Shown here in pieces: positions 26,581-42,856 of a DNA stretch of 64,000 bases; position 1 is the stretch's first letter, and each line of letters opens with the position of its first letter. Source of the DNA: a virus; IMG/VR virus record IMGVR_UViG_3300030503_000573, positions 9,084 through 73,083 of that record. One strand, 5' to 3'. A program made the translations under genes and the position numbers. The notes under the pieces are model-generated. The model was not told the origin of the DNA, ran no database searches, and worked only from the letters and a program-made list of their open reading frames with translations.

Positions 26581-26590
26581 GGAGAACAAG

Positions 26591-27803: not shown

Positions 27804-28367
27804 ATGACCCGCACCCGCCGCCCCGCTGGCTCCCGTGCCCACCCTGTCACCACCACCCTCGGCTCGGCCTTTGAAGATGGCCGCTCCGATGTCGAGGGCC
27901 TCTACGAGGAGATGAACGACTGGGCCTCCAACATGGAGGGCAACAGCATGGAGCACCTGCCCAAGTACGACGAGGTCACCGAGGCCCGCGACGCGCTGGA
28001 GACAGCCAACGACACCCTCGGCGGCATCGAGCCGCCAGACGCCATCGCTGACCTGGAGGTCCACTTCACGACTGACACGCGCCAGAACGCCCAGAGCCGC
28101 TCGGGCCGTATGGGGAATGTCCTGCAGGCCCTGGGCGCGGCCAAGGACGCCGCCGAGGCCTGGATGGAGGAAAACCCTGAGCTGGAGGTCAGCGAACCAG
28201 ACGAGGAATTCATCGACGGCAACGAACCCCTGGAGGAAGAAGAGAAGGTCACCCAGGAGCAGGTCGAAGAGCGCGAGGCTGCCCGCACCGAGGTCGAAGA
28301 ATTCCTCAACGAGCTGGACAGCGCCATCAGCGAGGCCGAGGGGGTCAGCTTCCCCGGCATGTACTAG
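27804..28367 (+). CDS. Acidic hypothetical early protein
   Basis: CATAAGGAG RBS; very Glu/Asp-rich helical sequence. Confidence 0.65.
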   Translation: MTRTRRPAGSRAHPVTTTLGSAFEDGRSDVEGLYEEMNDWASNMEGNSMEHLPKYDEVTEARDALETANDTLGGIEPPDAIADLEVHFTTDTRQNAQSRSGRMGNVLQALGAAKDAAEAWMEENPELEVSEPDEEFIDGNEPLEEEEKVTQEQVEEREAARTEVEEFLNELDSAISEAEGVSFPGMY

Positions 28368-28401
28368 CCTATCCCACCCACCAGCATAAGGAGACCACCT
28401 C

Positions 28402-29091
28402 ATGACCAACACCACCTACACCACCAAGCGGGCGGCCATAGCCGGCGCGCGCCGCGCCCTCGCCAAGGCGGGCGTCGAGAACGCCCTGAGCCAGGTCCAC
28501 TTCAACGTCCACCTGCGGGAGGACAGCGACGAGTGGTACTGGGCGGCGGTGGACCTGACGCCGGCTGAGCGGAAGGCCCAGGTGACCAAGCCCTCAGGCA
28601 AGTCCTTTCCCGACGCTGACCCTGGTTCGACCAGGGAGCTGGCCGATCAGAAGGCCGCCCGCCAGTCTCGCGCGGCCAAGCAGGCCATCGCCGAGACCAC
28701 GGCCAGGACGCCGCCCACCCCGCCGCCCACCCCGCCGGTCGCTCCGGCCGAGCGCTGGCGCAAGCCCAAGCGCGCCGAGCCGTCGAAGATCGCCTACCGG
28801 CCGCGCTCGGGCTCGCAGCAGCGGGCGGCCTACGAGCTGCTCACCAGCCCGGACTACCCCGAGGGCATCGAGGCCCAGACCTTCTGCGACCTCATGAACC
28901 CGTGGGTCAAGCCTGGCGCGACGCCGTGGACCCCCGCCAACACCTGGGGCTTTCTCAACTACCTGCTCGTCAGCCAGAAGGGCTACGGCCTGAGCTTCGA
29001 CGGCACCCGGTTCCGCCTGCTGGTGCCGAAGGACGAGCGCGACCCGGTCGCGCGCAAGGCCGACCCGCTGCCGCCGATGAAGGCGAAGTGA
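28402..29091 (+). CDS. Hypothetical early protein (basic, possible C-terminal winged helix)
   Basis: CATAAGGAG RBS; Pro-rich linker. Confidence 0.65.
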   Translation: MTNTTYTTKRAAIAGARRALAKAGVENALSQVHFNVHLREDSDEWYWAAVDLTPAERKAQVTKPSGKSFPDADPGSTRELADQKAARQSRAAKQAIAETTARTPPTPPPTPPVAPAERWRKPKRAEPSKIAYRPRSGSQQRAAYELLTSPDYPEGIEAQTFCDLMNPWVKPGATPWTPANTWGFLNYLLVSQKGYGLSFDGTRFRLLVPKDERDPVARKADPLPPMKAK

Positions 29092-29300
29092 TGCGCAAGC
29101 CCACCACCCACCAGAGCTCCGTCATCGAGCTGCTCCGGCTCGGGCATGTCACGCCCGAGCCGCACGCCCCCCGCGCGGCGGTGGCCCACTACGAGGCCAA
29201 CCCGGCGGCGGCCGTGTGGGTGGTCGCCCGTACCCTCAGCGGTGCCAACCTCACCGAGATGTGGCGCGTCCACCCCGACGGCCGCGCGGAGCAGTTCTGA
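29091..29300 (+). CDS. Hypothetical protein
   Basis: 69 aa, coupled by TGATG overlaps. Confidence 0.5.
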   Translation: MRKPTTHQSSVIELLRLGHVTPEPHAPRAAVAHYEANPAAAVWVVARTLSGANLTEMWRVHPDGRAEQF

Positions 29301-30265
29301 TGAGCATCAGCATGAGAGGCTGGACCTACGGGGCCGAGCACGAGTTCGTGGACTGGCCACGGTCGAGGCCGCTCCCTGCGGGGTGCACCGCCCTGACGAA
29401 TGAGTACACCATCGTCAACTCGACCGGGGTGGCGACCGACCCGCACCACGACCCGGCCCGGCGCACCTACGCCTGGGGCCACGAGGTCAACACCCCGCCG
29501 ACCGACGACATCGGGGGCCAGGTCGGCATCATGATGGAGCTGCTGGAGGCGCTGCCCGAGGCCCGCGTCAACTACCGCTCTGAGCTCAACATCCACATCC
29601 GGGTGCCAGGCCTGCGAGACGACCTCGCGGCGCTGAAGCGCCTCGCCGACTACAACGGCCGCCACCTGAGGACCGCCGTCGAGCTGGTCGACCCCATGAG
29701 CCCCCCGGTGCGCTCCCTGGGCATGACCGACGACGAGTGGGAGGGCGCCAAGCGCAACTACGTGGTGCGCCGCAACTTCCAGCACCGGGTGCTGCCGCCC
29801 GACCGCACGGCCCGCCAGCTGGCGGCTGCCACCACCACTGAGTTCTTCGAGGCCGAGGTGCCGAAGGCGAGGGGCAACGGCCGCCCGATGTGGCACGCCC
29901 AGCCCCGGTGCGCGGTAAACCTGCGGCAGCTGCTGCAGACCGACACGGTGGAGTTCCGCCACTGGGCGGGGACGCTGAACGCCGGCTTGTTCCAGAACGC
30001 TGGGCTCTGGTGCATGTTGTACCTGCGAGGAGCCCTCTTCGATCCTGATACTGCGCCAACAGCTCTGTGGAATGGAATGGCGAGCAGCTTGTTAGAATTC
30101 CCACCCCAGCACCCCTACGAGCACTGGAAGGAGCGTCGTTTCCGCGCCACCACCCACGACGGCTCCAACCGCCGTGACGAGATTCTACGCAACATCGCGG
30201 CCATCGAGAGCGGCGAGTTCGACGACCTGCCCGAGTCGGTCGCACCTAGGAGGCTGCCGCTGTGA
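29300..30265 (+). CDS. Putative amidoligase (COOH-NH2 ligase, glutamate-cysteine ligase/GS fold)
   Basis: TYGAEHEF, GHEVNTPP, LNIHIRVP, AVNL, TVEFRHWAGTL motifs. Confidence 0.8.
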   Translation: MSISMRGWTYGAEHEFVDWPRSRPLPAGCTALTNEYTIVNSTGVATDPHHDPARRTYAWGHEVNTPPTDDIGGQVGIMMELLEALPEARVNYRSELNIHIRVPGLRDDLAALKRLADYNGRHLRTAVELVDPMSPPVRSLGMTDDEWEGAKRNYVVRRNFQHRVLPPDRTARQLAAATTTEFFEAEVPKARGNGRPMWHAQPRCAVNLRQLLQTDTVEFRHWAGTLNAGLFQNAGLWCMLYLRGALFDPDTAPTALWNGMASSLLEFPPQHPYEHWKERRFRATTHDGSNRRDEILRNIAAIESGEFDDLPESVAPRRLPL

Positions 30266-31110
30266 CGCGCATCGACGTAGCCGTCATCGGCGGGGGCCTG
30301 TTCGGGCGCACCATCGCGGCCGAGATGTGGGCCCAGGGACGGGAGTGTCAGGTACTCGACGACGCGCGGCCCTGGAGGGGCTCGGCCCCGGCCGCCTGCC
30401 TGATGCGGCCAAGCTGGTTCTCCAAGATGGAGAGGGGCGAGTACGTCGCCTCGATGGACCGGCTGGACCGGCTGTTCGGGGTCAAGAAGGTCAGGTTCGA
30501 GACGCCCGCAGGGCCGGCCGACCTGGACTGGGTGGACCCAGCCGTGGTGATGCGGCCGGACGCCTGTGTCATACCGGCGACGGTCACCGACATCTGGCGC
30601 GGCGAGGGCTACTGGGCGCTCAGCGTCAACACAGGACAGCCGGTCCACGCCCGCTCGGTCGTCGTGGCCACCGGCGTTTGGGTGCCGGAGCTTGTCAGGA
30701 CGCCCCACAACATCACCGCCCTCGGCGGGTGGGCCGTGACCTGGGCATGGCCCTACGAGCGCCAGCAGGGCCCGAGCCGCCTGGAGCCGTGGGCTCCCTA
30801 CAAGCAGCTCATCGGCTTCCAGCGGGGGGCTTGGGAGTGGTGGGCCGGCGACGGCACGGCGCTCCTCCCGGGATCGCTCACGCCAGAACGGCGCGACGCC
30901 TCCGAGAACCGCCTCCTGGCCTTCGGCAAGCGCCTTGGCCTAGCGGGTGTCGCCAGCATCACGGGCGGCCTCCGGCCGAAGGTTCCCGGGCTGCGCGCGC
31001 CGGCCCTCGTCGAGGAGGTCGCGCCCGGCCTGTGGATCGCGACCGGCGGCGCAAAGAACGGAACCCTTGGCGCGGCCTGGGCCTCGCTCCAGCTGAAGGA
31101 CAGGCTCTAG
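30262..31110 (+). CDS. FAD-dependent oxidoreductase/lyase (DAO/glycine oxidase-like)
   Basis: VAVIGGGLFG Rossmann motif, GSAPAAC, VVVATG, GGLRP, ATGGAKNG. Confidence 0.85.
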   Translation: MTRIDVAVIGGGLFGRTIAAEMWAQGRECQVLDDARPWRGSAPAACLMRPSWFSKMERGEYVASMDRLDRLFGVKKVRFETPAGPADLDWVDPAVVMRPDACVIPATVTDIWRGEGYWALSVNTGQPVHARSVVVATGVWVPELVRTPHNITALGGWAVTWAWPYERQQGPSRLEPWAPYKQLIGFQRGAWEWWAGDGTALLPGSLTPERRDASENRLLAFGKRLGLAGVASITGGLRPKVPGLRAPALVEEVAPGLWIATGGAKNGTLGAAWASLQLKDRL

Positions 31111-31476
31111 ATGCGCTTCGTGCTCCGCTCCAAGCTCCACAACGCCACGGTCACCGAGGCGAACCTGCTGTACGTGGGCTCGATCACCATCGACGAGCAC
31201 CTCATGGAGGTCGTCGGCCTGTGGCCCGGCGAGCGCGTGCTGGTGGTCTCCAACACGAGCGGGGCCCGCCTGGAGACCTACGTCATCACCGGCGACCGCT
31301 ACTCCGGGGCGATCTGCATGAACGGGGCCGCCGCCCACCTCATCTCGGCCGGCGAGCAGGTCATCATCATGGGCTTCGAGCTGGCCGAGCGGCCCATCAC
31401 ACCGGCCGTGGCCCTGTGCACGCCTAATAACCAGGTAGCACGCATGCTAAGCGAAATCTCAGGAGAGTTCCTATGA
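31111..31476 (+). CDS. panD: Aspartate 1-decarboxylase (pyruvoyl-dependent)
   Basis: SKLHNATVTEANLLYVG|SITID autocleavage site, GARLETYVI, NGAAAH. Confidence 0.95.
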   Translation: MRFVLRSKLHNATVTEANLLYVGSITIDEHLMEVVGLWPGERVLVVSNTSGARLETYVITGDRYSGAICMNGAAAHLISAGEQVIIMGFELAERPITPAVALCTPNNQVARMLSEISGEFL

Positions 31477-31646
31477 TCCAAGCCCTCGTCATGGCAGTGA
31501 TGCTGTGCGCGCTAGTGGTGGTCACCGCCAAGGTGCTGACCCTGCTGCTGCGCCTCGTGCTGGTGCTCGCCGGCATGGCGGTGCTGGCCGTGCTCGGGGC
31601 AGCCACATTCCTCATCACGCTCGCCGCGTCTGTTGCGAGCGCCTAG
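31473..31646 (+). CDS. Small very hydrophobic membrane protein (57 aa, not in ORF track)
   Basis: MIQALVMAVMLCALVVV...; AGGAG RBS and ATGA overlap with panD. Confidence 0.5.
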   Translation: MIQALVMAVMLCALVVVTAKVLTLLLRLVLVLAGMAVLAVLGAATFLITLAASVASA

Positions 31647-31696
31647 AGACCCGCGCGCGGCGGCTTCCGCGCACAGCAAGAAGGAGGACTACGACT

Positions 31697-31855
31697 ATGG
31701 ACAAGATCATGAGCTACCTGGGCGACGAAGGCGGTGCCAGCGCCGCTGAGTACGCCTTGATCCTGGCGCTGATCGCCCTGGTGATCATCGTCAGCGTCAC
31801 GACCCTCGGCACCAACATCAACGGTGTCTTCTCGCACGCTGCCAAGTCTATCTGA
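31697..31855 (+). CDS. flp: Flp/Tad type IVc prepilin
   Basis: MDKIMSYLGDEGG|ASAAEYALILALIALVIIVSVTTLGTN; prepilin cleavage G and EY Flp motif; AAGGAGG RBS. Confidence 0.9.
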   Translation: MDKIMSYLGDEGGASAAEYALILALIALVIIVSVTTLGTNINGVFSHAAKSI

Positions 31856-31899
31856 CGCGGCGCGGCGGCCCGGGGTGGTGAGCCCCGGGCGACTACCTT

Positions 31900-32460
31900 G
31901 TGAATCATATGGAGTTCTCAGACGTGGCCAGGGCGATGTTCTACGACAGCTATCAGGACGAAGTGAGGGACTGGATGCTCCAGACCTTCCCGCCCGAGGT
32001 CTGCCAGGACCGGGTCGAACGCGCCGACCGCCTGCTGGAGGAGGTCTTCGAGCTGCTCCAGAGCGGAGGCTACGACCCGGCGCGGGTCGCAATGATCCGC
32101 GACTACGTCTGGGGCCGACCGGTCGGCGAGCCGGCGCAGGAGGTGGGTGGTGTCGCTGTGACCCTCGCGGCCTACTGCTGGGTGCACGGCCTTGACTACG
32201 AGGCTGCTGCCAGGGCCGAGGTGGCCCGGGTGTGGACCATGATTGATGTCATCCGCAGGAAGCAGGCGGCCAAGCCCAAGGGGAGCCCGCTGCCGGTCGC
32301 GGTGGACCACCCGGCGGAGGCTCCTGTATCCAGAACAGCTGTCATGATATTTGGACAGCCTAAGCTGTACTATGAGGTCTACGAATGCGATCCTCGTGAT
32401 GGCGCGATGTGGACTGATGAGCGCGTCACGTCATGGTTTAGAGGCGAGCCGCTGCCGTGA
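31900..32460 (+). CDS. MazG-like nucleotide pyrophosphohydrolase
   Basis: YQDEVRDW...RLLEEVFEL...QEVGGVAVTL all-alpha NTP-PPase pattern. Confidence 0.75.
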   Translation: MNHMEFSDVARAMFYDSYQDEVRDWMLQTFPPEVCQDRVERADRLLEEVFELLQSGGYDPARVAMIRDYVWGRPVGEPAQEVGGVAVTLAAYCWVHGLDYEAAARAEVARVWTMIDVIRRKQAAKPKGSPLPVAVDHPAEAPVSRTAVMIFGQPKLYYEVYECDPRDGAMWTDERVTSWFRGEPLP

Positions 32461-32852
32461 CCAGAACCGTCCCCCGCACCTCGCCCCCGCTCGACCTGGA
32501 GCTGGTCGCGCGCACCCTGCGCACCGCCACCTACCGGGCCTGGATGCTGAGCCTGACCAACAACCGCATGGCCGTGCGCTCCTACGAGGAGATGAAGGCC
32601 CCGGAGGTCGGGCAGATGGTCGTCGAGCTGACGACCATCTGGGCGCGTGCGTTCGACCTCAAGGGCGTCGGGGAGCTGGTGCTCGTAGCCCAGGAGAGGA
32701 TCGACCTCGGCGGTGAGCCCTGGGACGAGGTCTTCCAAGGCACCCCGTGCCCGACCGAGCCAGTCTACTACGTCAAGAACCTAGACGGCACCGTGACCCG
32801 CTGGACGAACTGCCAGCTGCTAGCCTGCCCAGCAGACCTGGGGCTAGTCTAG
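32457..32852 (+). CDS. Hypothetical protein
   Basis: 131 aa, GTGA overlap. Confidence 0.5.
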   Translation: MTRTVPRTSPPLDLELVARTLRTATYRAWMLSLTNNRMAVRSYEEMKAPEVGQMVVELTTIWARAFDLKGVGELVLVAQERIDLGGEPWDEVFQGTPCPTEPVYYVKNLDGTVTRWTNCQLLACPADLGLV

Positions 32853-32857
32853 CACCC

Positions 32858-33178
32858 ATGACCCGCCCCATCCACTTCACCCCGGCCGACGTCGAGCGCT
32901 TCCTGAGCTTCGTCGTGCCCGCGCTTGACGGCTGCCACCACTGGGCAGGTGGCACGAGCTGCGGTGGCCACAACACGAGCGAATACGGCTCGTTCTGGGT
33001 GGACGGGCGCGGGGTGCGTGCCCACATCTTCGCCGCCGTCGCGCTGGGCGACGGGCACGCGCCGGGCAACCACGTCGACCACCTGTGCGTGACGTCGCTG
33101 TGCGTCAACCCAGCCCACCTGGAGGACGTGCCCCCGCCGGTGAACCAGGCGCGGAAGCTGGAGCGGCGGAGGCGTTGA
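32858..33178 (+). CDS. HNH endonuclease (Zn-binding loop type)
   Basis: CHHWAG...YGSF...RAH...VDHLCVTSLCVNPAHLE. Confidence 0.85.
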   Translation: MTRPIHFTPADVERFLSFVVPALDGCHHWAGGTSCGGHNTSEYGSFWVDGRGVRAHIFAAVALGDGHAPGNHVDHLCVTSLCVNPAHLEDVPPPVNQARKLERRRR

Positions 33179-33495
33179 TGGCCCACCCCTCCACCCTCAT
33201 GGCCATCGCGGCTGGCGACTACCGCCTGTTCTGGGTGCGGGTTGGCCCGACCTCGGCGCACACCGCGTGCTGCTGCCCGGCCCACGCCCTCGACAAGCTG
33301 GTGATGATCGGCGTGCTGCGCAGCGACGGCCGCCACCCGGCCGAGGGCGGCGAGATTGACGGCCGGTTCGTGCACTGGTTCTTGGCCCACCCAGAAGACC
33401 TCGACCGGCCGATGGGGCAGGGCGAGGTCGACTTCATCCAGGCCGCGTGCGAGAGCGCGGGGCTGAGCAGCATCGTGAGCGAGGCGAGGAACTAG
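33178..33495 (+). CDS. Hypothetical protein
   Basis: 105 aa, GGAGG RBS, directly before the amino acid:DNA transferase. Confidence 0.5.
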   Translation: MAHPSTLMAIAAGDYRLFWVRVGPTSAHTACCCPAHALDKLVMIGVLRSDGRHPAEGGEIDGRFVHWFLAHPEDLDRPMGQGEVDFIQAACESAGLSSIVSEARN

Positions 33496-33497
33496 CA

Positions 33498-34394
33498 ATG
33501 ATGGAAGTCGAAGACTTTGGCCGCCTGCTGATCGAGACCGGCGACCTCGACCCGGTGTACGTGGCGCTGAACCGCATGCGTTGGCCGGGCGGGTTCGCCC
33601 AGAGGGACCGCTGGCTGCAGGCGTACTGGTGCTGCTACCACGTGGGGGCCAGCTGCTGGCTCGCCGAGGTTCCGGACTTCTGGGGCTTCATGCGGCTGGC
33701 CGCCGTCAACGAGCGGCCGTCTCCCCTGGGCGGCCGGTGGCCCAGGGCGGCCGAGCGCCGCCACTGGCGGGGTCAGGCAGCCATAGACAGCGTCAACGAC
33801 CTGGAGCGCCGCTACGGCAACCCGAACGCCCCTGACAAGAGCTGGTCCATGGTGCGGTACTGCGGCTTCGACGTCGAGCGGGAGGACATCCACCAGCCCA
33901 AGGTCCCCCTCGCGCTGATTGAGGCCCGCGTCAAGGAGCACACCGGCTTCGGGCCCTGGATCGCCTTCAAGGTCGCCGACATGCTGGAGCGGTGCTGCGG
34001 GGTGCCGGTCGAGTTCGGCAACGCGCCGATGTTCTACGACAGCCCGAAGAAGGCCGCGCTGGCGCTGTTCAAGATGAGGGCCGGCCTGCCAGCCGCTGCC
34101 AAGGTCAAGGACGAGCTGGGGGCCATCTCCCAGGTCTCAGCCCACCTGCTGCGCACCATAGGCGACCTGGAGGCCCCCGGCGGGGGCCGGGCGTGCGGGC
34201 TGCCCGAGGTCGAGACCGTGCTGTGCAAGTGGGGCTCCCACCTCAGCGGCCACTATCCGCCGGGGAAGGACATCGCCGAGATTTATGAGGGGCTGTCCGA
34301 GTGGGAGACAGTCAGCCCGCTGGCCAGGAAGTTCCTCGCGGCGATGCCTGTTGACCAAGCAAAGCTGCTAGGTGCGGCCCCGGCTGCGGCCTAG
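33498..34394 (+). CDS. Amino acid:DNA transferase, aGPT-Pplase2 clade
   Basis: GDLDPVY, ERRHWRG, GFGPWIAFKVADMLER, EVETVLCKW...HYPPGKD (HhH-glycosylase-like fold). Confidence 0.85.
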   Translation: MMEVEDFGRLLIETGDLDPVYVALNRMRWPGGFAQRDRWLQAYWCCYHVGASCWLAEVPDFWGFMRLAAVNERPSPLGGRWPRAAERRHWRGQAAIDSVNDLERRYGNPNAPDKSWSMVRYCGFDVEREDIHQPKVPLALIEARVKEHTGFGPWIAFKVADMLERCCGVPVEFGNAPMFYDSPKKAALALFKMRAGLPAAAKVKDELGAISQVSAHLLRTIGDLEAPGGGRACGLPEVETVLCKWGSHLSGHYPPGKDIAEIYEGLSEWETVSPLARKFLAAMPVDQAKLLGAAPAAA

Positions 34395-34420
34395 GTTAAC
34401 CACTGACATAAGGAGCTCAC

Positions 34421-35059
34421 ATGGGCTGGGTACTCAACATACGCGGGACCAACGGGTCAGGGAAGAGCCACCTCGTGCGCTCGATGCTGCCGACGCCTGA
34501 GTATAGGCCAAATGTTAACCTAGCCCGCTACGACTCACCGACGAAGCGCTACCCTGACCGCAAGAATGTAGTACCAGGGTATGTACTCAGTGAGCGAGAC
34601 CTCGGACTGTTTGGTGTTGTTGGCTCCTACGAGACCCCGACAGGCGGCCTCGACGGAGTGCCAACATTTGCGGCTCAGATCGCGAGCTGTGCTCAGCTGC
34701 TCAACGACAACGAGTGCTGTACAGTCCTCGCCGAGGGCGTGCTGGCCTCCACGGTCTTCGGAGCCTGGGGCGCGTTCGCCGATGACCTCTCGCGGTTATC
34801 TCGACACCGTATGGCGTTCCTCTACATGAGCACGCCGGTTGACGTATGCCTGATGCGCATCACCGAGCGCCAGATTAAGGCCGGTCGCATCAGGGATATC
34901 AACGAGCAGCTGGTGCGCGACAAGGTGCGGGCCGTCGCCGCGACCCGCGAGCGGGCGCTGGCCGCCGGCCACGCGGTGTTCGACCTGCCGTTCGGGCTGG
35001 AGCGCGTGGCGCTGACTGGCATCATGCGCGGCGACATGGAGAGCTACCGTGGGAACTAG
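34421..35059 (+). CDS. P-loop 5-hmdU DNA kinase paralogue 1
   Basis: NIRGTNGSGKS, VGSY...GGLD, AEG, CLMRITER; CATAAGGAG RBS. Confidence 0.8.
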   Translation: MGWVLNIRGTNGSGKSHLVRSMLPTPEYRPNVNLARYDSPTKRYPDRKNVVPGYVLSERDLGLFGVVGSYETPTGGLDGVPTFAAQIASCAQLLNDNECCTVLAEGVLASTVFGAWGAFADDLSRLSRHRMAFLYMSTPVDVCLMRITERQIKAGRIRDINEQLVRDKVRAVAATRERALAAGHAVFDLPFGLERVALTGIMRGDMESYRGN

Positions 35060-35678
35060 GCTGATAATCAACCTGCGTGGGCCCAACGGGGCCGGCAAGA
35101 CGACGGTGGCCCGGGGGTTCCTGGAGCACAAGACTATCGACCTGGAGCCATACAGATACATCAACTCTGAGGGTCGAAGCAGAAGCTGGCCTATAGCCCA
35201 ATGCAAGGCGCCAGGCCTCCAGCTGCCTATCTACGTGCTTGGACGCTATGATGTCCAGCAGGGCGGCTGTGACACGGAGAAGGACATGGACGCCATAGAG
35301 CGCTGCGTCCAGTGGGCCGTGGACAACCTCACCGATGGTCACATCTTCTTCGAGGGCTTCGTGGTCTCCAAGAGCGGCGGCCGGTGGCTGGAGTTCGCCG
35401 GGCGCAACGAGCGGGCTGGGAAGGGTCGCTACGTCTGGGCCTTCCTGAGGCCCAACCTCAACGAGCTGGAGGCACGCATCAAGGGCCGCAATGGCGGCAA
35501 GGAGGTCAAGCTTCCACTCCTTGACAACACGATGCGCACAGTTGACCTCATTCGCAACAAGGCAAAGGCCCTCGTCACCGACCGCCGGTTCCTGGTGGAC
35601 CTGGACTGGCAGCTCAGCGCGCCCATGGTTACCGAGCAGCTGATCCTACGCTTACAGCAGCTGGAGGCCGTCCGATGA
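35049..35678 (+). CDS. P-loop 5-hmdU DNA kinase paralogue 2
   Basis: INLRGPNGAGKTT, LGRY...GGCD, FFEG, RIKGRNG. Confidence 0.8.
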   Translation: MGTRLIINLRGPNGAGKTTVARGFLEHKTIDLEPYRYINSEGRSRSWPIAQCKAPGLQLPIYVLGRYDVQQGGCDTEKDMDAIERCVQWAVDNLTDGHIFFEGFVVSKSGGRWLEFAGRNERAGKGRYVWAFLRPNLNELEARIKGRNGGKEVKLPLLDNTMRTVDLIRNKAKALVTDRRFLVDLDWQLSAPMVTEQLILRLQQLEAVR

Positions 35679-36301
35679 CTACCCGAGTCATCGTCAACAT
35701 CAGGGGTGCCAACGCCAGCGGCAAGACGACGCTGATGCGCCGCGTGATTGGGTCTGCGCCATACGTAGACCTAGGCCAGTTTCCAGACGCCCAGGGGAAG
35801 ATGGGCTTCGTCCAAGGCCACCAGTTCTCGCTGGAGGGGTTCGAGCTGCCCTTCCTGGTCATCGGCCGGTACGATGCGTCCAAGTACTCGGGGTGCGACA
35901 AGATCAAGAGCGCTGACCAGATCGAGGGGGTGTTGCGCTGGGCCATAGACGGCGGCTTCGCCGGCCACGTCCTCTTCGAGGGCTTCCGGGTCTCCAAGAG
36001 CTGGGCCCGCTTCGCCGCCGTGCGCAACTGGTGCGTGAGCAACCATCATGCCAGCTGGGTGTGGGCCTTCCTGCGCGCCGAGCCCGAGCTGATCTTTGAG
36101 CGCTCGGCCGCCCGGCGCGAGGCCGACGCGAGGCCCATTGACAAGGAGGAGCTCGCGGCAGTGTGCCGGGTGATGGCCTCCACCTGGCGCAAGGCCAAGG
36201 TGGCGATGCCACGAGACTGCCTGGACCTGGACGCCTCGCAGCCGACCGAGGTGCTGTACGCGCAGCTGCTCGGGCGCATCAAGATGCTGGAGTCGGCGTG
36301 A
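35675..36301 (+). CDS. P-loop 5-hmdU DNA kinase paralogue 3
   Basis: NIRGANASGKTT, IGRY...SGCD, LFEG, RSAARR. Confidence 0.8.
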   Translation: MTTRVIVNIRGANASGKTTLMRRVIGSAPYVDLGQFPDAQGKMGFVQGHQFSLEGFELPFLVIGRYDASKYSGCDKIKSADQIEGVLRWAIDGGFAGHVLFEGFRVSKSWARFAAVRNWCVSNHHASWVWAFLRAEPELIFERSAARREADARPIDKEELAAVCRVMASTWRKAKVAMPRDCLDLDASQPTEVLYAQLLGRIKMLESA

Positions 36302-37290
36302 TGGACGTCGGCCCGCTGGTCGCCTGGGTGAATGAGCGCGAGGCGGTGCGGCTTAGGAAGGCTATCATTGCTGCTGGCGTTGACAGCTGGGGCCTAGAAG
36401 CCGGCTCCCTCACTCGTGATGTCTGGGGCGAGCATCCCAGAGACTACTGGCAGCTGGGTCACCTCACCGACGACCCCATCCTTCAGCAGTTCAAGTTCTG
36501 CAACGTCCGCCGCGAAGACGACCGGGTGACTGTCTGGGTTCGCGAGCACATCAGGGAGCCGTATGCCGACCAGCAGCACCTGTGGCTCATGCTGGCCATC
36601 GCGAGGACGATCAACTGGCCCCCGGCGCTGCTGGAGCTGATCAGGGGCGGAGCCGAGGGCGTGTCCTCGTTCCCCAACATGCAGGACTTCGATCCGCGCT
36701 GCATGGCCCAGGTGCTGGAGGCGCGGCGGGCGCGTGGCGAGAAGGTCGAGACCGGCGCGTACATGATCAGGGCGGAGAGCCGGAAGGACAAGCCCTGGTA
36801 CAGCTGGTCGAAGCAGCGGTATATCGCAGAGATCGTGATTGGCCATCTCTGGTACATGCGGGCCAGCTGGAAGCATGACTTTGAAAAGAAGAAGCTGACT
36901 ACGCTGGAGCGCACCTGGGAAATTTTCCAGGAATATGACGGCTGGGGCCCATTCATGGCCTTCCAGGTCATCGTCGACCTCGCACACACCCGCTACCTGC
37001 GAGACGCGCCCGACCGCTCTAGCTGGGCCGCGCTCGGGCCCGGCTCGCGCCGGGGGCTGAACCGGCTGTACGGCCGGCCGGTGACAACTGGGCTGACGCA
37101 GGCCCAGGGTCTGGAGGAGATGCGAGAGGTCCAGGCGGCGGTGAACGCGCCGGGCGTGCTGGCGCCGTGGGTCGAGAAGATCGCGCTGAGCGACATACAG
37201 AACTGCTTGTGCGAGACGGATAAATACCTCAGGGTAAGGAACGGCGAGGGTCGGCCGAGGGCCCTCTACAAGCCATGGAGTGGGTGGTGA
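36301..37290 (+). CDS. Amino acid/amine:DNA transferase, aGPT-Pplase1 clade
   Basis: TDDPILQQFKFCNVRREDDRVT, GAYMI, GPFMAFQVIVDL, GPGSRRGLNRL, DIQNCLCETDKY. Confidence 0.9.
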   Translation: MDVGPLVAWVNEREAVRLRKAIIAAGVDSWGLEAGSLTRDVWGEHPRDYWQLGHLTDDPILQQFKFCNVRREDDRVTVWVREHIREPYADQQHLWLMLAIARTINWPPALLELIRGGAEGVSSFPNMQDFDPRCMAQVLEARRARGEKVETGAYMIRAESRKDKPWYSWSKQRYIAEIVIGHLWYMRASWKHDFEKKKLTTLERTWEIFQEYDGWGPFMAFQVIVDLAHTRYLRDAPDRSSWAALGPGSRRGLNRLYGRPVTTGLTQAQGLEEMREVQAAVNAPGVLAPWVEKIALSDIQNCLCETDKYLRVRNGEGRPRALYKPWSGW

Positions 37291-37514
37291 GCATGATCAA
37301 TCGGATCAACCAGCTTATGGTGCGAACCCGATGCTTTGCTGGCCTCCACCCTCGGGTAATCTCTGGTCGAGGGATGTGGGGCGACGCTGGCACCTGCCTG
37401 GTATGCGGAGCCGACGGCTATGGCCTCAAGGGCCTTCACAACACAGACCTCGCCGATGCAAGCGAAGATGACCGAGAGCGCCTGAGGGTGCTGGACGAGC
37501 AGAGGACGGCCTGA
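37287..37514 (+). CDS. Small Cys/His-containing protein
   Basis: C..GLH...CLVC; coupled between transferase and TS. Confidence 0.45.
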   Translation: MSMINRINQLMVRTRCFAGLHPRVISGRGMWGDAGTCLVCGADGYGLKGLHNTDLADASEDDRERLRVLDEQRTA

Positions 37515-38602
37515 TGCACACCATCCACGCCCGCAACGTCAACGACGCCCTACACGCCGGCCTGATGCTGGTCCACAGCCACGGCATCCCGGAGACGAGC
37601 CGCAATGGTCCGGTCCTCCGCGTGCCCGAGCCGGTGGCCACCGTGTACGCCCGGCCGTGCGAGCGCGTGCTGATCCAGCCGTGGCGCGACGCCAACCCGT
37701 TCTTCCACCTCGTCGAGGCCTTCTGGATGCTCGCCGGGCGCGACGACCTGCGGCAGCTGACGCCCTACGTGTCCCGCATGAGGGAGTTCTCCGACGACGG
37801 CGGGGTGACGCAGCCCGGGGCGTACGGGAAGCGGTGGCGCGATCACGTCAAGAGCCCTTTCCTGGGCGGCATCGACCAGCTCAGCTGGGTAGCCGGGAGG
37901 CTTAGAGAGGACCCCAGCGACCGGCGCTGCGTCATTCAGATGTGGGACGCCAGCGTGGACATCCACAAAGCGTCCATCGGTGGCAACGACGCCCCGTGCA
38001 ACCTCACGGCCACGCCCTACGTCGCGGCCGGCGCGCTCCACCTCGCGGTGTTCTGCCGCTCCAATGACATCATCTGGGGCGCATACGGCGCCAACGCGGT
38101 GCACTTCTCGGTGCTGCTGGAGTACCTGGCGGCGCGGGTTGGGGTGCCGGTCGGGACATACACGCAGGTGAGCATCAACTACCATGCCTACCTCAGCACC
38201 TTCCCCAAGGTCATGCCGGTCGAGGCGGCGCAGCCGTACAGCGTGAGCGGATTTGACGCCCTTCAACCCATACCTATGTTTTCAGAATGGTTGGTCGGCG
38301 GCGAAGATCGGGAATGCGAGCGCATCTTCCAGGAGGACCTCAGGGTCTTCTTCGAGGAGGGCCCCTTCGCCTACGCCACCGCCGGGCGCATTCCCTTCAT
38401 GCGCCGGGTGCTGGTGCCTATGTGCCTGGCCCACCAGCACTGGCGCACGAAGAAGGGCGAGGACCGCTACCTCGGCGCGCTGGAGATTCTGCGCAGCTGC
38501 GCCGCGCCGGACTGGCGCCGGGCCGCCGAGGAGTGGGTTGGCCGCCGGTACGACAGGTGGAAGCTCGCCGCAGACGACGGAGCCCACGATGCTGAGGGAT
38601 AG
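37514..38602 (+). CDS. Thymidylate synthase homologue, probable dUMP hydroxymethylase
   Basis: SRNG, NPFFHLVEAFWMLAGR, GAYGKRWR, DAPCN, RSNDIIWGAYGANAVHF (Asn = dUMP-type). Confidence 0.88.
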   Translation: MHTIHARNVNDALHAGLMLVHSHGIPETSRNGPVLRVPEPVATVYARPCERVLIQPWRDANPFFHLVEAFWMLAGRDDLRQLTPYVSRMREFSDDGGVTQPGAYGKRWRDHVKSPFLGGIDQLSWVAGRLREDPSDRRCVIQMWDASVDIHKASIGGNDAPCNLTATPYVAAGALHLAVFCRSNDIIWGAYGANAVHFSVLLEYLAARVGVPVGTYTQVSINYHAYLSTFPKVMPVEAAQPYSVSGFDALQPIPMFSEWLVGGEDRECERIFQEDLRVFFEEGPFAYATAGRIPFMRRVLVPMCLAHQHWRTKKGEDRYLGALEILRSCAAPDWRRAAEEWVGRRYDRWKLAADDGAHDAEG

Positions 38603-38759
38603 CGAAGCCCACCAGGAGTTCGTGCGTCGCCACGCCATCTTCATGGAGCAGATCAAGCGCGCCGAGCGCCGGCGCTACCTGAGCCGGATGTTCTTTGGCG
38701 GGCTGATCTGGGGCCTGGGCTTCGCCCTCGGCCTCGCTGCGGCCCGCATTCTTCACTAG
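38589..38759 (+). CDS. Small membrane protein
   Basis: 56 aa, C-terminal TM; GGAG RBS. Confidence 0.45.
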   Translation: MLRDSEAHQEFVRRHAIFMEQIKRAERRRYLSRMFFGGLIWGLGFALGLAAARILH

Positions 38760-38771
38760 GGACCATAGGAA

Positions 38772-39371
38772 ATGCCCAAGCTCTTTGACCGCGTCAGGCT
38801 CGCCCGCGAGGGGGCGGCCGTCGAGCGCGCCCACCAGCACCCCCACCTGCAGCGCTACTCGGTCGGGCACCACTCGCTCGATGTGGTCACGCTGGTGGTG
38901 CTGTGCTGGAAGCACGACCACGGCGGCGAGCTCCCCCGGGCCGAGCTGCTCGTGGCAGCGGCCTTTCACGACGTTGCCGAGCGCGTCACCGGCGACCTGC
39001 CAAGTCCCATCAAGGACCGCTGCCGCGATGCCCTGGGCGAGATCGAGAAGGAGGTGGACCGCTACCTCGGGGTGGACGTCGGGCTGCGGGAGGACGAGCA
39101 GTGGTACCTCAAGAGCTGCGACAAGCTGGAGCTGTACCTGTGGGCCCACGAGGAGGCCAGCCGGGGCAATTGCCGCTTCCTGGGCTGGTGCCGGGTGTAC
39201 GAGCAGAACTGGCAGTATGAGCCGCCGCCTGAGTCCGTCAAGCGCATCGTCGAGGCTGTCGACCACGCGGGCCACATACCTGTTCTGCCGGGCGACCCGA
39301 CCGACATGATCAGGCTCGGGCTCGCCAACATGGCCGCCGAGCAGCGCTCGGGAGTGCGCACCGATGGATGA
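38772..39371 (+). CDS. HD-domain 5'-deoxynucleotidase (YfbR-like)
   Basis: SVGHHS, FHDVAERVTGDLPSPIK, LKSCDKLE. Confidence 0.85.
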   Translation: MPKLFDRVRLAREGAAVERAHQHPHLQRYSVGHHSLDVVTLVVLCWKHDHGGELPRAELLVAAAFHDVAERVTGDLPSPIKDRCRDALGEIEKEVDRYLGVDVGLREDEQWYLKSCDKLELYLWAHEEASRGNCRFLGWCRVYEQNWQYEPPPESVKRIVEAVDHAGHIPVLPGDPTDMIRLGLANMAAEQRSGVRTDG

Positions 39372-39759
39372 GCGCATCGAGGCGCGGCAGTACGGGGGCG
39401 ACCACTACCGAGGCACGATCAAGCACTGGGACATCTGCGAGAGGTGGGACGTGCCCTACCTGGAGGGCAACGCCACCAAGTACATCGAACGCTACGACCG
39501 CAAGGGCTCGCCCGTTGCCGACCTCACGAAGGCCGGCTCCTACCTGGCCAAGGCCATCGAGACGCGCGGCCGGCCCAGGCGCATAGTGCCGGAGGCCGAG
39601 GTGCTGCGCTGGGCGATAGGCGCACAGCTGGATGGCTGGAAGCTCCACATGATGCGCCTGATCCTGTGTGAGGGCCGAGACGAGAGCCTGAGTGTGGCGC
39701 TCGACTTTCTCCACGGTCGGCTGGCCATGCTGGAGCGAGAGCGGCCAGCCGAAGCATGA
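39364..39759 (+). CDS. DUF3310/SaV-like nucleotide-associated protein
   Basis: QYGGDHY...HWD...YLEGNATKYIERYDRKG...DLTKA. Confidence 0.85.
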   Translation: MDERIEARQYGGDHYRGTIKHWDICERWDVPYLEGNATKYIERYDRKGSPVADLTKAGSYLAKAIETRGRPRRIVPEAEVLRWAIGAQLDGWKLHMMRLILCEGRDESLSVALDFLHGRLAMLERERPAEA

Positions 39760-40091
39760 GCCCCCACTCCCCCCAGCAGTGCGCCCTTGACGTCATCGCG
39801 GCCTTCGGCGGCGCGACGCTGGCCCAGGTCATGGGCCGCACCCGGGGGCCCGCCCCGGTGTGCCTGCGGCGGTGGCTCGCGCAGTGGGTGTGGTGGCGCA
39901 TCAGGGGCGGCGACGGCGTGAACCTGCTGAGCGGCCCGAGCTACGCCGCGACCGGCCGGGCCTGGGGCCGGCACCACGTCACCATCATGGGGGCGAGGGC
40001 GAAGACCCGCGACTACCTCGCGGGGCACCCCGAGGTGGCCGCTGAGGTCGAGCGCATAATCAGCTGGAAGACGGGGCAGCGCCCTGCATGA
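39756..40091 (+). CDS. DnaA C-terminal-like HTH protein
   Basis: SYAATGRAWGRHHVTIM resembles the DnaA domain IV S..IG..FGRDHTTV motif. Confidence 0.6.
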   Translation: MSPHSPQQCALDVIAAFGGATLAQVMGRTRGPAPVCLRRWLAQWVWWRIRGGDGVNLLSGPSYAATGRAWGRHHVTIMGARAKTRDYLAGHPEVAAEVERIISWKTGQRPA

Positions 40092-42037
40092 GCCAGCTCC
40101 AGGCCACGCTGTTCCCCCCGGAGAGCGCCTGGAGGCCGCCCCGCCTGGGCCACCTGCCCCAGGACTGGTCGATGTTCCCCCGCATCGGCCTCGACACCGA
40201 GACCGAGGACCGCTACCTCAAGACCCTCGGGCCCGGGGTGAGGCGCGGCGGCCGCATCGTCGGGGTCTCACTGTGCTTCCCGGGACTCCGCAGCTGGTAC
40301 CTACCCATCGGCCACGCGGGCGGCGACAACATGGAGGACGCGGACCGGGTGCTGGAGTACCTCCGCGCCTGCGCGAAGGGCTACACCGGCGAGGTCGTCG
40401 GGGCGAACCTCAGCTACGATGTCGACTACCTCGCCGAGGCCGGCGTGGACCTGACCCACGCCCAGCTGCTGGACATCCAGGTGGCCGAACCCCTCATCGA
40501 CGAGCTGCAGTGGAGCTACTCGCTGGAGAGCATCGCGCAGCGACACGGGCTGGGTGGCAAGGAAGAGGGGCTGCTGAGGGAGGCTGCCGAAGCATACCGC
40601 GTCGACCCCAAGGCTGGCCTCCACCTGCTGCCGGCCCGCTACGTCGGTCCCTACGCTGAGGAGGATGCGGCCCTCCCGCTCCGCATACTTGAGCGGCAGG
40701 AGGCCATCATCGAGGAGCGCGGCCTGGGCCCCATCTGGGCCCTGGAGAAGCGGGTCACCCCGGCCCTCATCGCCATGCGCCGCCGGGGCGTCGCCATCGA
40801 CCACGACGCGCTGTCCAAGGTCGAGCGGTACTCACTGGCCGAGGAGAGCAAGGCCTGGGCCACGCTGCAGCGCGAGACCGGCGTAGCCGTGAAGGTCGGT
40901 GACGCCATGAAGGCCGACGTGGTAGCAGCGGCCATAAGGCCGGCCGGGCTGATCCCGCCGAAGACCGCGACCGGCAAGCCGTCCATCACCAAGCAGTGGC
41001 TCGACGCCCTCAAGCACCCGGTCGCCGAGGCCGTGCGCCGGGCCCGCAAGATGAGCCAGCTGCGCACCACCTTCGTCGCCTCGGTGCGCGAGCACGAGGT
41101 GCGGGGCCGCGTTCACTGCACGTTCAACCAGGTCGTCACCTCAGACGAGGAGGACAAGACCGTCGGTGGGCGCTATGGCCGCCTGAGCTGCTGCGACCCA
41201 AACCTCCAGCAGCAGCCGGCGCGAGACCCGGAGATCGGCCCGATGTGGCGCTCCGTGTACGTGCCGGACCACGGGTGCGAGTGGGGCTCGCTCGACTACT
41301 CCCAGCAGGAGCCGGGCCTCGCCATCCACTTCGCGGTCGCGGCCGGCCCGGACCTCATAGGCGAGCGGGGCTACGAGAGCGCCGTGGCGGCCATGGAGGC
41401 CAAGTGGCGCGACCCGAGCCTGGACTACCACACCAACTTCACCGCCATGGTGCACGGCGAGTACGTCTTCGGCCTGGACAAGAAGGCCCTCAAGCTGCTG
41501 CGCGATCCGTGCAAGAACATCTTCCTCGGCATCTGCTACGGCGAGGGCGGCCCCAAGCTGTGCCGCGACCTGGGCTACCCCACGCAGATCATCGAGGACC
41601 ACCACGGCCGCAAGCGCGAGGTCGCGGGCCCAGAGGGGCAGGCGCTGCTCGACCTCGTGGATGCCCGCGTGCCGTACGTGCGGAAGATTTCAGCGGCGGT
41701 CGAGCGGGTGGCCAAGGAGCGCGGCTTCATCGTCACCGGCGGGGGCCGCCAACTCCACTTCCCGACCGACCAGTGGGGCAACTACGACTGGACCTGGAAG
41801 GCGTTCAACCGCCTCATCCAGGGCACAGCTGCCGACCAGATGAAGACAGCGACCGCCGTGCTGCACGAGGCCGGCGTGCCCCTGCAGCTCCAGGTCCACG
41901 ACGAGCTGGACCTGAGCCTGGCCGGGGGCCGGCCCGAGGGCGAGCGCTACGCCCGGGAGATGGTTGAGTGCTTCCCGCTCCGGGTGCCGGTGCGGGTCGA
42001 CGTCGAGGTGGGCCCGAGCTGGGGGAAGATCGCTTGA
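40088..42037 (+). CDS. polA: Family A DNA polymerase with 3'-5' exonuclease
   Basis: GLDTET, NLSYD, YAEEDA; GRLSCCDPNLQQQP, LDYSQQEP, KNIFLGICYG, NRLIQGTAAD, QVHDEL. Confidence 0.95.
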   Translation: MSQLQATLFPPESAWRPPRLGHLPQDWSMFPRIGLDTETEDRYLKTLGPGVRRGGRIVGVSLCFPGLRSWYLPIGHAGGDNMEDADRVLEYLRACAKGYTGEVVGANLSYDVDYLAEAGVDLTHAQLLDIQVAEPLIDELQWSYSLESIAQRHGLGGKEEGLLREAAEAYRVDPKAGLHLLPARYVGPYAEEDAALPLRILERQEAIIEERGLGPIWALEKRVTPALIAMRRRGVAIDHDALSKVERYSLAEESKAWATLQRETGVAVKVGDAMKADVVAAAIRPAGLIPPKTATGKPSITKQWLDALKHPVAEAVRRARKMSQLRTTFVASVREHEVRGRVHCTFNQVVTSDEEDKTVGGRYGRLSCCDPNLQQQPARDPEIGPMWRSVYVPDHGCEWGSLDYSQQEPGLAIHFAVAAGPDLIGERGYESAVAAMEAKWRDPSLDYHTNFTAMVHGEYVFGLDKKALKLLRDPCKNIFLGICYGEGGPKLCRDLGYPTQIIEDHHGRKREVAGPEGQALLDLVDARVPYVRKISAAVERVAKERGFIVTGGGRQLHFPTDQWGNYDWTWKAFNRLIQGTAADQMKTATAVLHEAGVPLQLQVHDELDLSLAGGRPEGERYAREMVECFPLRVPVRVDVEVGPSWGKIA

Positions 42038-42092: not shown

Positions 42093-42371
42093 ATGACCTC
42101 CGTCAAGAGCTGGGCCAACGGGGCTGAACCGGGCGAACGCATCGTCTACCGCCAGAGCTGGATTGGCGAAGAACACAACCCCATCACGATGGAGGAGCGC
42201 CAGGCCATGGCTGATGCGATGGCGGCCCACACAGCCGCCCTCGTCTTCCTCGCGCAGCGCCGGCTGCCGAACAAGACGCTGTACGAGGCCACCCGAATCT
42301 CGCTGCGCACCGCGCAGGCGCTCGGCCTCGCGCCGAAGCCGGAGCGCCGCCACGCGGCGATGCGCGCATGA
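42093..42371 (+). CDS. Hypothetical protein
   Basis: 92 aa, W..AEPGERIVY...LVFLAQRR pattern. Confidence 0.55.
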   Translation: MTSVKSWANGAEPGERIVYRQSWIGEEHNPITMEERQAMADAMAAHTAALVFLAQRRLPNKTLYEATRISLRTAQALGLAPKPERRHAAMRA

Positions 42372-42856
42372 TACTCGGGGCCTGGGAGATCAGCAGCCGG
42401 GCCCTCCTGTGGCCCTGCCAGCCCCGCTGCGAGGTCGAGCACACCGAGGGCCGCCGGGTGAGCCACGGCCTCGGGCCGGCCGGGTACGACCTCCAGCTGG
42501 ACCTGACGTCGCACCCTGACGCTCAGGACGGCGGCACACGCCACCTGTTCATCTCGCCGGGCTCATTCCTGCTCGCGTCGACCGTCGAGTGCTTCAACAT
42601 GCCGGCCGATGTCATAGGCATCGTCCACGACAAGTCGAGCTGGGCGCGCCAGGGCCTGTGCGTCCAGAACACAGTCATCGAGCCGGGCTGGCGCGGCTAC
42701 CTGACCCTGGAGCTGACGAACCACTCGCGCCACGTCATCCGCCTGGAGCACGGCCTCGGCATCGCCCAGGTGGTGTTCCACGAGGTGCTCAACCCTGGCG
42801 AGGCATACAGCGGCAAGTACCAGGACCAGGAACCCGGCCCACAGGCGGCGCGGTGA
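42368..42856 (+). CDS. dcd: dCTP deaminase
   Basis: GYDL, DKSSWARQGL, VIEPGWRGYLTLE, GIAQVVF, YSGKYQDQ. Confidence 0.9.
   Translation: MILGAWEISSRALLWPCQPRCEVEHTEGRRVSHGLGPAGYDLQLDLTSHPDAQDGGTRHLFISPGSFLLASTVECFNMPADVIGIVHDKSSWARQGLCVQNTVIEPGWRGYLTLELTNHSRHVIRLEHGLGIAQVVFHEVLNPGEAYSGKYQDQEPGPQAAR

Follow-up and report, generated by a model that had tools for sequence, protein, structure and literature searches.

Three divergent homologues of 5-hydroxymethyldeoxyuridine DNA kinases in tandem in a phage thymidine-hypermodification operon

The closest described systems to the locus analysed here are those of phages M6 and PaMx11, in which thymidine hypermodification involves a DNA kinase (5-HMUDK) for 5-hydroxymethyldeoxyuridine (5-hmdU), namely gp54 and gp49, respectively. 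According to PMC8989533, one kinase plus the transferase aGPT-Pplase2 (Pplase2), which acts on the monophosphate, is enough for amino-acid transfer in vitro in all the systems reconstituted, and the chemical precedent named there is ThiD, a kinase for the hydroxymethyl group of a pyrimidine. The same source reports that M6 gp54 phosphorylates ~23% of the 5-hmdU in fully substituted SP8 DNA and that its product is the monophosphate only, even at 5 mM ATP. Similar values are found elsewhere, with SP8 DNA ~20% phosphorylated after kinase treatment and the dinucleotides TG and TC in the protected sites (PMC7653180 and PMC6449724), and modified sites in the DNA of M6, ViI and PhiW-14 prefer TS, S being C or G (PMC6449724). 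The present analysis concerns a related gene cluster in IMG/VR virus record IMGVR_UViG_3300030503_000573, a genome of 73,083 bp rated 100% complete, of which the stretch analysed (‘the window’, 64,000 nucleotides) covers bases 9084-73083. The feature is a phage thymidine-hypermodification operon, and it carries three kinase genes in tandem.

The interval 33498-37290, delimited in the initial annotation of the window, runs exactly from the start of Pplase2 to the stop of a second transferase-type gene, aGPT-Pplase1 (Pplase1). The three tandem, divergent kinases of about 210 amino acids (aa) seen there were confirmed, as were the PF18724 and PF18723 matches of their neighbours and the presence of the three noted motifs in every one of them. 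The kinases are called K1, K2 and K3 below, in gene order (Table 1). The starts and stops of K1 and K2 overlap by 11 nt, those of K2 and K3 as ATGA, and those of K3 and Pplase1 as GTGATG, so that K1, K2, K3 and Pplase1 form one translationally coupled unit. Exactly three kinase-profile matches are found in the complete virus record. K1 and K2 pass the gathering cut-off (27 bits) of the Pfam family PF18748 (HMUDK_HMUD1) and are the only two places in the whole genome that do so. K3 has no PF18748 match at E<=0.01, its best Pfam match being AAA_33 at 21.5 bits, below cut-off.

Despite the missing Pfam match, K3 is clearly a homologue of 5-hmdU DNA kinases, as judged by several comparisons. An hhalign comparison of the K3-type with the K1-type alignment gives a probability of 99.8% (E 3e-28), and BLASTP aligns K2 with K3 at 32.6% identity over 215 aa (E 1.1e-29), K1 with K2 at 25.5% (E 1.9e-10) and K1 with K3 at 30.1% over 123 aa (E 1.2e-6). 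Likeness to characterized kinases is within reach of single-sequence searches, with E 5e-9 for K1 against M6, E 8e-8 for K2 against the M6 kinase region and E 1e-7 (tblastn) for K3 against the PaMx11 gp49 region. A precomputed PF18748 match is present on 6 of 28 K3-type clusters. In addition, the P-loop GxxxxGK[ST] and the motifs N-x-R-G, G-x-Y, GG-x-D, EG and R-x-x-x-R are intact in K1, K2 and K3 and common to M6 gp54, PaMx11 gp49, ViI gp67 and PhiW-14 gp37; that these motifs define the superfamily is our own reading of the alignments rather than a curated definition. The kinases also keep genomic company with a dUMP hydroxymethylase and with aGPT-Pplase genes, a synteny that recurs in related loci. 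The second 5-HMUDK family, HMUD2 (PF18747), has no match in the genome, while the positive control, ViI gp243, was found at E 3.1e-170. Public phage annotation, in passing, widely labels 5-hmdU DNA kinases ‘terminase small subunit’, M6 gp54 and PaMx11 gp49 included; ‘baseplate hub’ and ‘thymidylate kinase’ are further labels in use, and the labelling is seen in phrog_800 and in many phage records of RefSeq.

Conservation within the family allows the functional state of each paralogue to be estimated. Invariant alignment columns include, in K1 numbering, N6, R8, G9, N11, G14, K15, G68, Y70, G76, D78, E105, G106, R146 and R150. When a conserved position is defined as one kept in at least 85% of the rows of each of three clades described below (52 sequences), 16 such positions are obtained, in K3 numbering N8, R10, G11, G16, K17, R22, G64, Y66, G73, D75, H98, E102, G103, S107, R143 and R147, a set that includes the P-loop lysine, the GG(C/L)D aspartate, the EG motif and two arginines of the lid. 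K1, K2 and K3 keep all 16, with the sole exception of a threonine at the H98 position in K1. Since these positions are kept, none of the three looks dead, and all look catalytically intact.

Each type carries its own signature as well, namely PTKxxPxR in a hairpin insert, EGVLASTV and YLDTPL in the K1 type, YDVQQGGCDTEKDMD in the K2 type and SKYSGCDKIKS in the K3 type, with VSKS and WxWAF common to K2 and K3. The clade-specific positions adjoin the putative catalytic aspartate and follow the Walker-B-like EG motif, and the β-hairpin insert after the P-loop helix, present in the K1 and K3 models, differs in sequence by type; these positions and the insert are plausible candidates for substrate-recognition elements. 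AlphaFold2 predicts a confident P-loop kinase fold for K1 (predicted local distance difference test score, pLDDT, 91.4), with the same order of secondary structures as K3, and a fold of nucleoside monophosphate (NMP)/deoxynucleoside kinases for K3 (pLDDT 95.2). Foldseek gives 29 matches to K3 at E<=1e-3, headed by UMP/CMP, adenylate, deoxynucleoside and thymidylate kinases. When the PDB was searched by sequence with a K2-type profile, the matches (RecA, guanylate kinase) went no further than the P-loop level, and no 5-HMUDK structure was among them. Prediction of a K1+K3 complex, run without controls, scored 0.14 against a mark of 0.32 and counts neither way.

The three paralogues share only 21-33% identity pairwise. 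Their relationships were examined in a quick IQ-TREE tree, with support given only by the Shimodaira–Hasegawa-like approximate likelihood ratio test (SH-aLRT), of 94 kinases that represent 125 collected sequences after merging of 31 rows at >=90% identity; locus open reading frames (ORFs) of <150 aa, the 121-145-aa fragments P0029 and P0039 and the window's own clusters were left out. K1 groups in a clade of 22 rows (SH-aLRT 95) that also contains the sole kinases of Rhizobium phage RHph_I65 and Pam3, to which it is 41-44% identical. The K2 clade has 12 rows (SH-aLRT 97) and the K3 clade 28 (SH-aLRT 100), and these two are sisters (SH-aLRT 96), apart from M6 gp54 and PaMx11 gp49. PhiW-14 gp37 and both ViI kinases are on very long branches, which makes their places unsure. 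A third accessory clade is formed by L009_2562, L010_10540 and L048_3418 (support 95). K1, K2 and K3 are thus old paralogues from three separate, well-supported clades. Recent tandem duplication is ruled out by the 21-33% identities and the three clades. Twelve homologues of K2 besides its own cluster (31-59% identical) and 30 of K3 (27 of them at 39-51% identity) were found, and this conservation indicates that each kinase type is kept by selection. The possibility that K3 is a decayed copy is ruled out by its intact motifs and its 27 conserved homologues.

How kinases are combined was examined in 80 IMG/VR loci anchored on Pplase1, with kinases counted by hidden Markov models of our own. A single kinase was detected in 51 loci and a pair in 7, and 21 loci show none; L009, a 4,324-nt contig with an arrangement unlike that of the window and one kinase ORF downstream of Pplase1, is alone in having three. 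K1-type kinases occur alone in L003, L004 and many others; a core-type kinase is joined by a K2 type in L007, L008 and L037, K1 is joined by K3 in L018, and all three types are found in the window. Where a K2-type (L007, L008, L037) or K3-type kinase (L018) is present, its partner belongs to the K1/M6 half of the tree, and the third accessory clade is likewise found only beside a core-type kinase (L009; L010:9989-11088; L048:3418-4544). K1 represents the core type, which the closest relatives carry as their only kinase; K2 and K3 represent accessory clades, found in readable loci only next to a core-type kinase. The transferase set is constant across loci, with one Pplase2 and one Pplase1, and ADDT matches are single in each of the 4/4 multi-kinase records checked. 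Extra kinases accompany tailoring enzymes of the radical S-adenosylmethionine/pyridoxal phosphate (rSAM/PLP) type in L008, L037, L048 and L049 and of the FAD/amidoligase type in L007 and the window.

Searches for further relatives of the cluster were mostly negative. K1, K2 and K3 matched 267, 92 and 26 records of the phage collection, always at one place per record. Megablast of the region against the 50,697 phage records gave no match. The scan of IMG/VR for close relatives returned none with K2 alone and one contig with K3 alone, the same single contig being found with a K3-type profile. No relative was found in metagenome scans with a joint K2+K3 profile or a K3 profile, nor in a search of genome contigs with the K2+K3 profile. 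The adjacency of K2 and K3 probably recurs on two contigs, since P0033 and P0019 are each found on one contig of 4,926 nt and P0039 and P0025 each on one of 1,486 nt, an unconfirmed pairing that is deduced from equal contig sizes only. Literature searches on the family names, which were not exhaustive, found no three tandem kinases, K2 or K3 clades or kinase–kinase fusions.

Fused kinases do exist in sequence collections. A profile search of 1.84 billion representative sequences yielded 2,036 family members at E<=1e-3, 29 of them at E<=1e-30, and among the best 150 of these 2,036 four proteins have two kinase domains (P0045, P0049, P0055 and P0182). P0045, known from one contig only, joins a K1-like half (41%, E 3e-41) to a K3-like half (43%, E 5e-46); P0049 occurs on 3 contigs and P0055 on 5, and no P0049-type fusion was found in the IMG/VR scan. 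In addition, kinase::Pplase1 fusions of 576 and 578 aa (PF18748+PF18723) were found, the kinase part of which is nearest to K1 (E 2e-13, versus 4e-10 for K2 and 6e-4 for K3), and PMC8989533 describes a triple fusion of the type 5-HMUDK/PLP/Pplase2.

By homology with described pathways, the dUMP hydroxymethylase and the pool enzymes would put 5-hmdU into the DNA, the kinases would phosphorylate its hydroxymethyl group in the polymer to give 5-phosphomethyldeoxyuridine (5-PmdU), Pplase2 would replace the phosphate by glycine, and the flavin lyase would trim the product to 5-aminomethyl-deoxyuridine (5-aminomethyl-dU), which the amidoligase, with PanD, would probably decorate further. Why three kinases should serve one such pathway can be answered tentatively, the preferred reading being held at somewhat less than an even chance. 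K1, K2 and K3 would all catalyse one reaction, the ATP-dependent addition of a single phosphate to 5-hmdU in DNA, but at different sites; each would recognize different neighbouring bases or a different form of the DNA, and the union of the three site ranges would raise the share of hypermodifiable thymines, with K2 and K3 as stackable add-ons. Different sequence-context specificities had already been proposed in the initial annotation, and this part of it survives as the most economical reading, because the published single 5-HMUDKs are sequence-selective in the accounts cited above. Thymine makes up 16% of the bases of the window (G+C ~68%), and 77% of its thymines are in a TC or TG context. 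The occurrence of multi-kinase combinations with either tailoring chemistry suggests that the additional kinases work at the first step, which both chemistries have in common, and that their effects add up.

Several points weigh against this division of sites. K2- and K3-type kinases are never the sole kinase in the readable loci (four loci and the window), a pattern that equal, independent kinases need not show. The two-kinase fusions hint at a physical coupling that a pure partition of sites does not require. The stem signature of K2 and K3, with a lysine at position 108 and loss of the DTP motif, could reflect a changed substrate. Modification levels of 30-50% are attained even by phages with one kinase (PMC9599517; PMC6449724), and the argument from site preference is weakened by being drawn by analogy with M6-type kinases.

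Some of these points suit other accounts better. K1 might produce 5-PmdU, to which K2 and/or K3 would add a second phosphate to give 5-pyrophosphoryl-methyl-deoxyuridine; pyrophosphate would be a better leaving group, and the product might be the real substrate of Pplase1. ThiD provides a precedent, as it also adds a second phosphate; its substrate is a free base and its fold ribokinase-like, unlike those of 5-hmdU DNA kinases. Such sequential chemistry, which is judged unlikely, would explain why K2- and K3-type kinases occur only with a core-type kinase in readable loci, and fusions such as the K1-like::K3-like P0045 would suit consecutive steps on one base. The invariant lysine 108 common to K2 and K3 is replaced by threonine in the K1 type and by T, A and T in the monophosphorylating M6 gp54, PaMx11 gp49 and ViI gp67, and its extra positive charge could bind an acceptor phosphate. 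Pyrophosphorylated 5-hmdU was moreover reported in vivo in PhiW-14 and SP10 and, according to the summary in PMC8989533, reproduced by no single kinase. However, K2 and K3 keep the invariant aspartate of GG(C/L)D, the presumed general base for a hydroxyl acceptor, they would be redundant with each other, Pplase1 is present in single-kinase relatives also, the monophosphate suffices for Pplase2 (PMC8989533), and PhiW-14, a source of the pyrophosphate report, gives only one match to the kinase profile. A bolder form of the idea, which appears distinctly unlikely, is that the K2 and K3 clades as a whole embody a new, partner-dependent activity on the product of K1-type kinases, most attractively the transfer of a second phosphate onto 5-PmdU; if true, it would reproduce the never reconstituted pyrophosphoryl-5-hydroxymethyluracil of PhiW-14 and SP10 and give Pplase1 its substrate.

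The kinase::Pplase1 fusions with their K1-nearest kinase part, the usual position of K1-type genes directly upstream of Pplase1 in single-kinase loci, the order K2-type, Pplase2, K1-type, Pplase1 in L037, the published triple fusion (PMC8989533) and the translational coupling of the three kinases to Pplase1 point in another direction, a channelling in which K1 works with Pplase1 while K2 and/or K3 feed phosphorylated sites to Pplase2, so that the enzyme that reaches a site sets its fate. This account is held to be distinctly unlikely: gene order varies, since in L018, L007 and the window the gene that abuts Pplase1 is K3 or K2, and in L008 K2 precedes K1; three kinases for two transferases leave one kinase unexplained; and M6 and PaMx11 have a single kinase beside both transferases. 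Second phosphorylation and channelling nevertheless stay alive because of the never-alone pattern, the fusions and the lysine specific to K2 and K3. Redundancy and a nucleotide-level kinase are less likely than either. If the paralogues had identical roles and identical sites, and served as reserves against host inhibitors or for use in other hosts or conditions, the range of 1 to 3 kinases in clusters that are syntenic in other respects would be understandable, as would the sufficiency of one kinase in all the systems reconstituted in vitro (PMC8989533), but the age of the paralogues (21-33% identity) and the conserved signature of each clade argue for distinct, selected roles and make such insurance improbable. 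That one paralogue converts 5-hmdUMP to 5-hmdUDP to feed replication, instead of acting on DNA, is very improbable. The complete record lacks a match to the thymidylate kinase family (PF02223), which was detected in 14/14 control genomes, and the fold of K3 is nearest to UMP/CMP, adenylate and thymidylate kinases. However, such matches to NMP kinases are expected for any kinase of this fold class, all three paralogues carry N-x-R-G, G-x-Y and GG-x-D, motifs that are specific to the family and present in DNA kinases of demonstrated activity, and in the pathway proposed for SH-Ab 15599 the 5-hmdUMP and 5-hmdUDP steps are assigned to host dNMP/dNDP kinases (PMC13458397).

Concerning the transferases, the idea that two clades of them imply two hypermodified thymidines fails, because the pair Pplase2 and Pplase1 is the norm in phages with a single kinase and a single modification, M6 and PaMx11 included, and is universal in the block. 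One-to-one dedicated transferase partners, also envisaged initially, do not fit three kinases facing two transferases, with a single ADDT in each multi-kinase record checked. Pplase2 of the window matches PDB entries 25qc (E 1.3e-74) and 8z2m, ‘Glycinyltransferase’ (E 9.2e-60), and is 42% identical to PaMx11 gp46 (E 1e-70); it is probably a glycine transferase. The FAD enzyme shows 41% full-length identity (E 2e-63) to PaMx11 gp47, a flavin-dependent lyase converting N-alpha-GlyT to 5-aminomethyl-dU (PMC8989533, Table 1). Because Pplase2 and the FAD enzyme resemble the PaMx11 glycine transferase and lyase, 5-aminomethyl-dU is a likely intermediate. Pplase1 is 50-52% identical to its homologues in Rhizobium phages and Pam3; in M6 lysates, Pplase1 (gp55) is dispensable for group transfer (PMC8989533). 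No kinase was found in the fetched flanks of 21/80 Pplase1 loci (e.g. L052, L055, L058 and L060-L063), and these mostly lack a hydroxymethylase too; Pplase1 may work without 5-HMUDK in some viruses.

The end product of the pathway may be of a new type. The amidoligase-like protein matches Pfam PF12224 only at E 0.11, the three best among the ESM Atlas matches listed (score 0.95-0.96) are viral clusters of which 30-51% of members are Amidoligase_2, and the structure match has a template modelling (TM) score of 0.62-0.73. Its homologues adjoin the kinase cluster in L007, L012, L016, L047 and L065. PanD matches occur in 15/50,697 phage records, and no PanD homologue is present in any related locus. 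The combination of amidoligase, flavin lyase and PanD suggests an undescribed end product, an acylated 5-aminomethyl-dU, and it may be guessed that the final decoration is amide-linked and derived from aspartate or β-alanine.

The features of the operon and its surroundings are listed in Table 1. Between 29.3 and 42.9 kb every named gene is on the + strand, and the hydroxymethylase gene is syntenic with those of M6 and PaMx11. A promoter and terminator scan of 28000-40200 gave results at chance level and is uninformative. Amid the modification block, the pilin-like ORF could be either a genuine gene carried by the phage or an ORF that arose by chance, and HNH genes occupy comparable positions in Pam3 and in several IMG/VR loci. 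Further upstream, the region 24595-27151 holds an ORF of 661 aa, whose matches to ribonucleotide reductase are weak and below threshold, and an Rv2179c-like 3′-5′ exoribonuclease (PF16473, 114 bits).

Table 1. Genes of the hypermodification operon and its neighbourhood, in window coordinates
Feature	Coordinates	Strand	Details
Amidoligase_2-like protein, putative tailoring enzyme	29297..30265	+	start uncertain, ORF open from 29216
FAD-dependent oxidoreductase, homologue of PaMx11 gp47 flavin-dependent lyase	30262..31110	+	PF01266, 48.3 bits
PanD-type aspartate 1-decarboxylase	31111..31476	+	PF02261, 128.5 bits, E 1.5e-37
52-aa Flp/Fap pilin-like ORF	31697-31855	+	PF04964, 49.2 bits, E 4.5e-13
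Probable nucleotide pyrophosphohydrolase (pool remodelling)	31900..32460	+	tblastn 44.6% identity to Pam3 region so annotated; phrog_14118 (function unknown), E 3.2e-51; no Pfam match
HNH/His-Me endonuclease ORF	32855-33178	+	between tailoring genes and Pplase2
aGPT-Pplase2/amino acid:DNA transferase (AADT)	33498..34394	+	PF18724 (ADDT), 58.9 bits, cut-off 26.2
K1, core-type homologue of 5-hmdU DNA kinases	34421..35059	+	212 aa, ATG start, PF18748 31.9 bits
K2, accessory-clade kinase	35049..35678	+	209 aa, GTG start, PF18748 32.5 bits
K3, accessory-clade kinase, sister to K2	35675..36301	+	208 aa, ATG start, no Pfam match above cut-off
aGPT-Pplase1 (HMUDK_hel)	36298..37290	+	PF18723, 139.9 bits
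Thymidylate-synthase-like dUMP hydroxymethylase	37514..38602	+	PF00303 66.2 bits; phrog_5131 E 4.6e-102
HD-domain 5′-deoxynucleotidase (YfbR-like)	38772..39371	+	PF12917, 49.2 bits
DUF3310 gene		+	between HD gene and PolA in listed order
Family A DNA polymerase (PolA)	40088..42037	+	ends conserved synteny block; tblastn 46-59% identity to related-locus PolA
dCTP deaminase/dUTPase-like protein (dU nucleotide supply)	42368..42856	+	phrog_1663, E 2.6e-50

The interest of the operon lies in the kinase step, which appears to decide which thymines are modified and hence how far the genome is protected against restriction enzymes. With its three divergent kinases, the operon offers a natural test of whether site range is encoded by the kinase and can be stacked, for which relatives with one or two kinases are natural controls. 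The operon could further help to explain what Pplase1 does and the old report of a pyrophosphorylated intermediate, and for marking 5-hydroxymethyluracil in DNA, kinases that differ in site preference, once these preferences are defined, would be useful.

Compared with known systems, the window shares with M6 and PaMx11 the order of the block (Pplase2, tailoring genes, kinase, Pplase1, hydroxymethylase, HD, PolA) as well as the kinase family and its motifs, but M6 and PaMx11 have one kinase versus three here, K2 and K3 belong to clades of their own apart from gp54 and gp49, and an amidoligase-like gene and PanD take the place of the PaMx11 acetyltransferase. The initial statement that characterised systems generally need one kinase holds insofar as one suffices in vitro, but not for gene content, since ViI (gp67 and gp243) and SP10 (gp186N and gp218) likewise encode more than one paralogous predicted 5-HMUDK, two in each case, listed as Kinase and Kinase2 (PMC5889632, Table 3), and activity has been demonstrated for the two ViI enzymes (PMC8989533). 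In ViI, an HMUD1 kinase (PF18748, at 38 kb) and an HMUD2 kinase (PF18747, at 150 kb) are far apart in the genome, whereas the three kinases of the window are all HMUD1-like and in tandem, without HMUD2. The closest relatives by Pplase1, Rhizobium phages RHph_I65, RHph_I72 and RHph_TM26 and Pseudanabaena phage Pam3, share the synteny from Pplase2 to PolA and carry only one kinase, of the K1 type, between Pplase2 and Pplase1, versus three in the window. The three-kinase cluster thus differs from relatives that carry one or two kinases and is a new variation on a known system.

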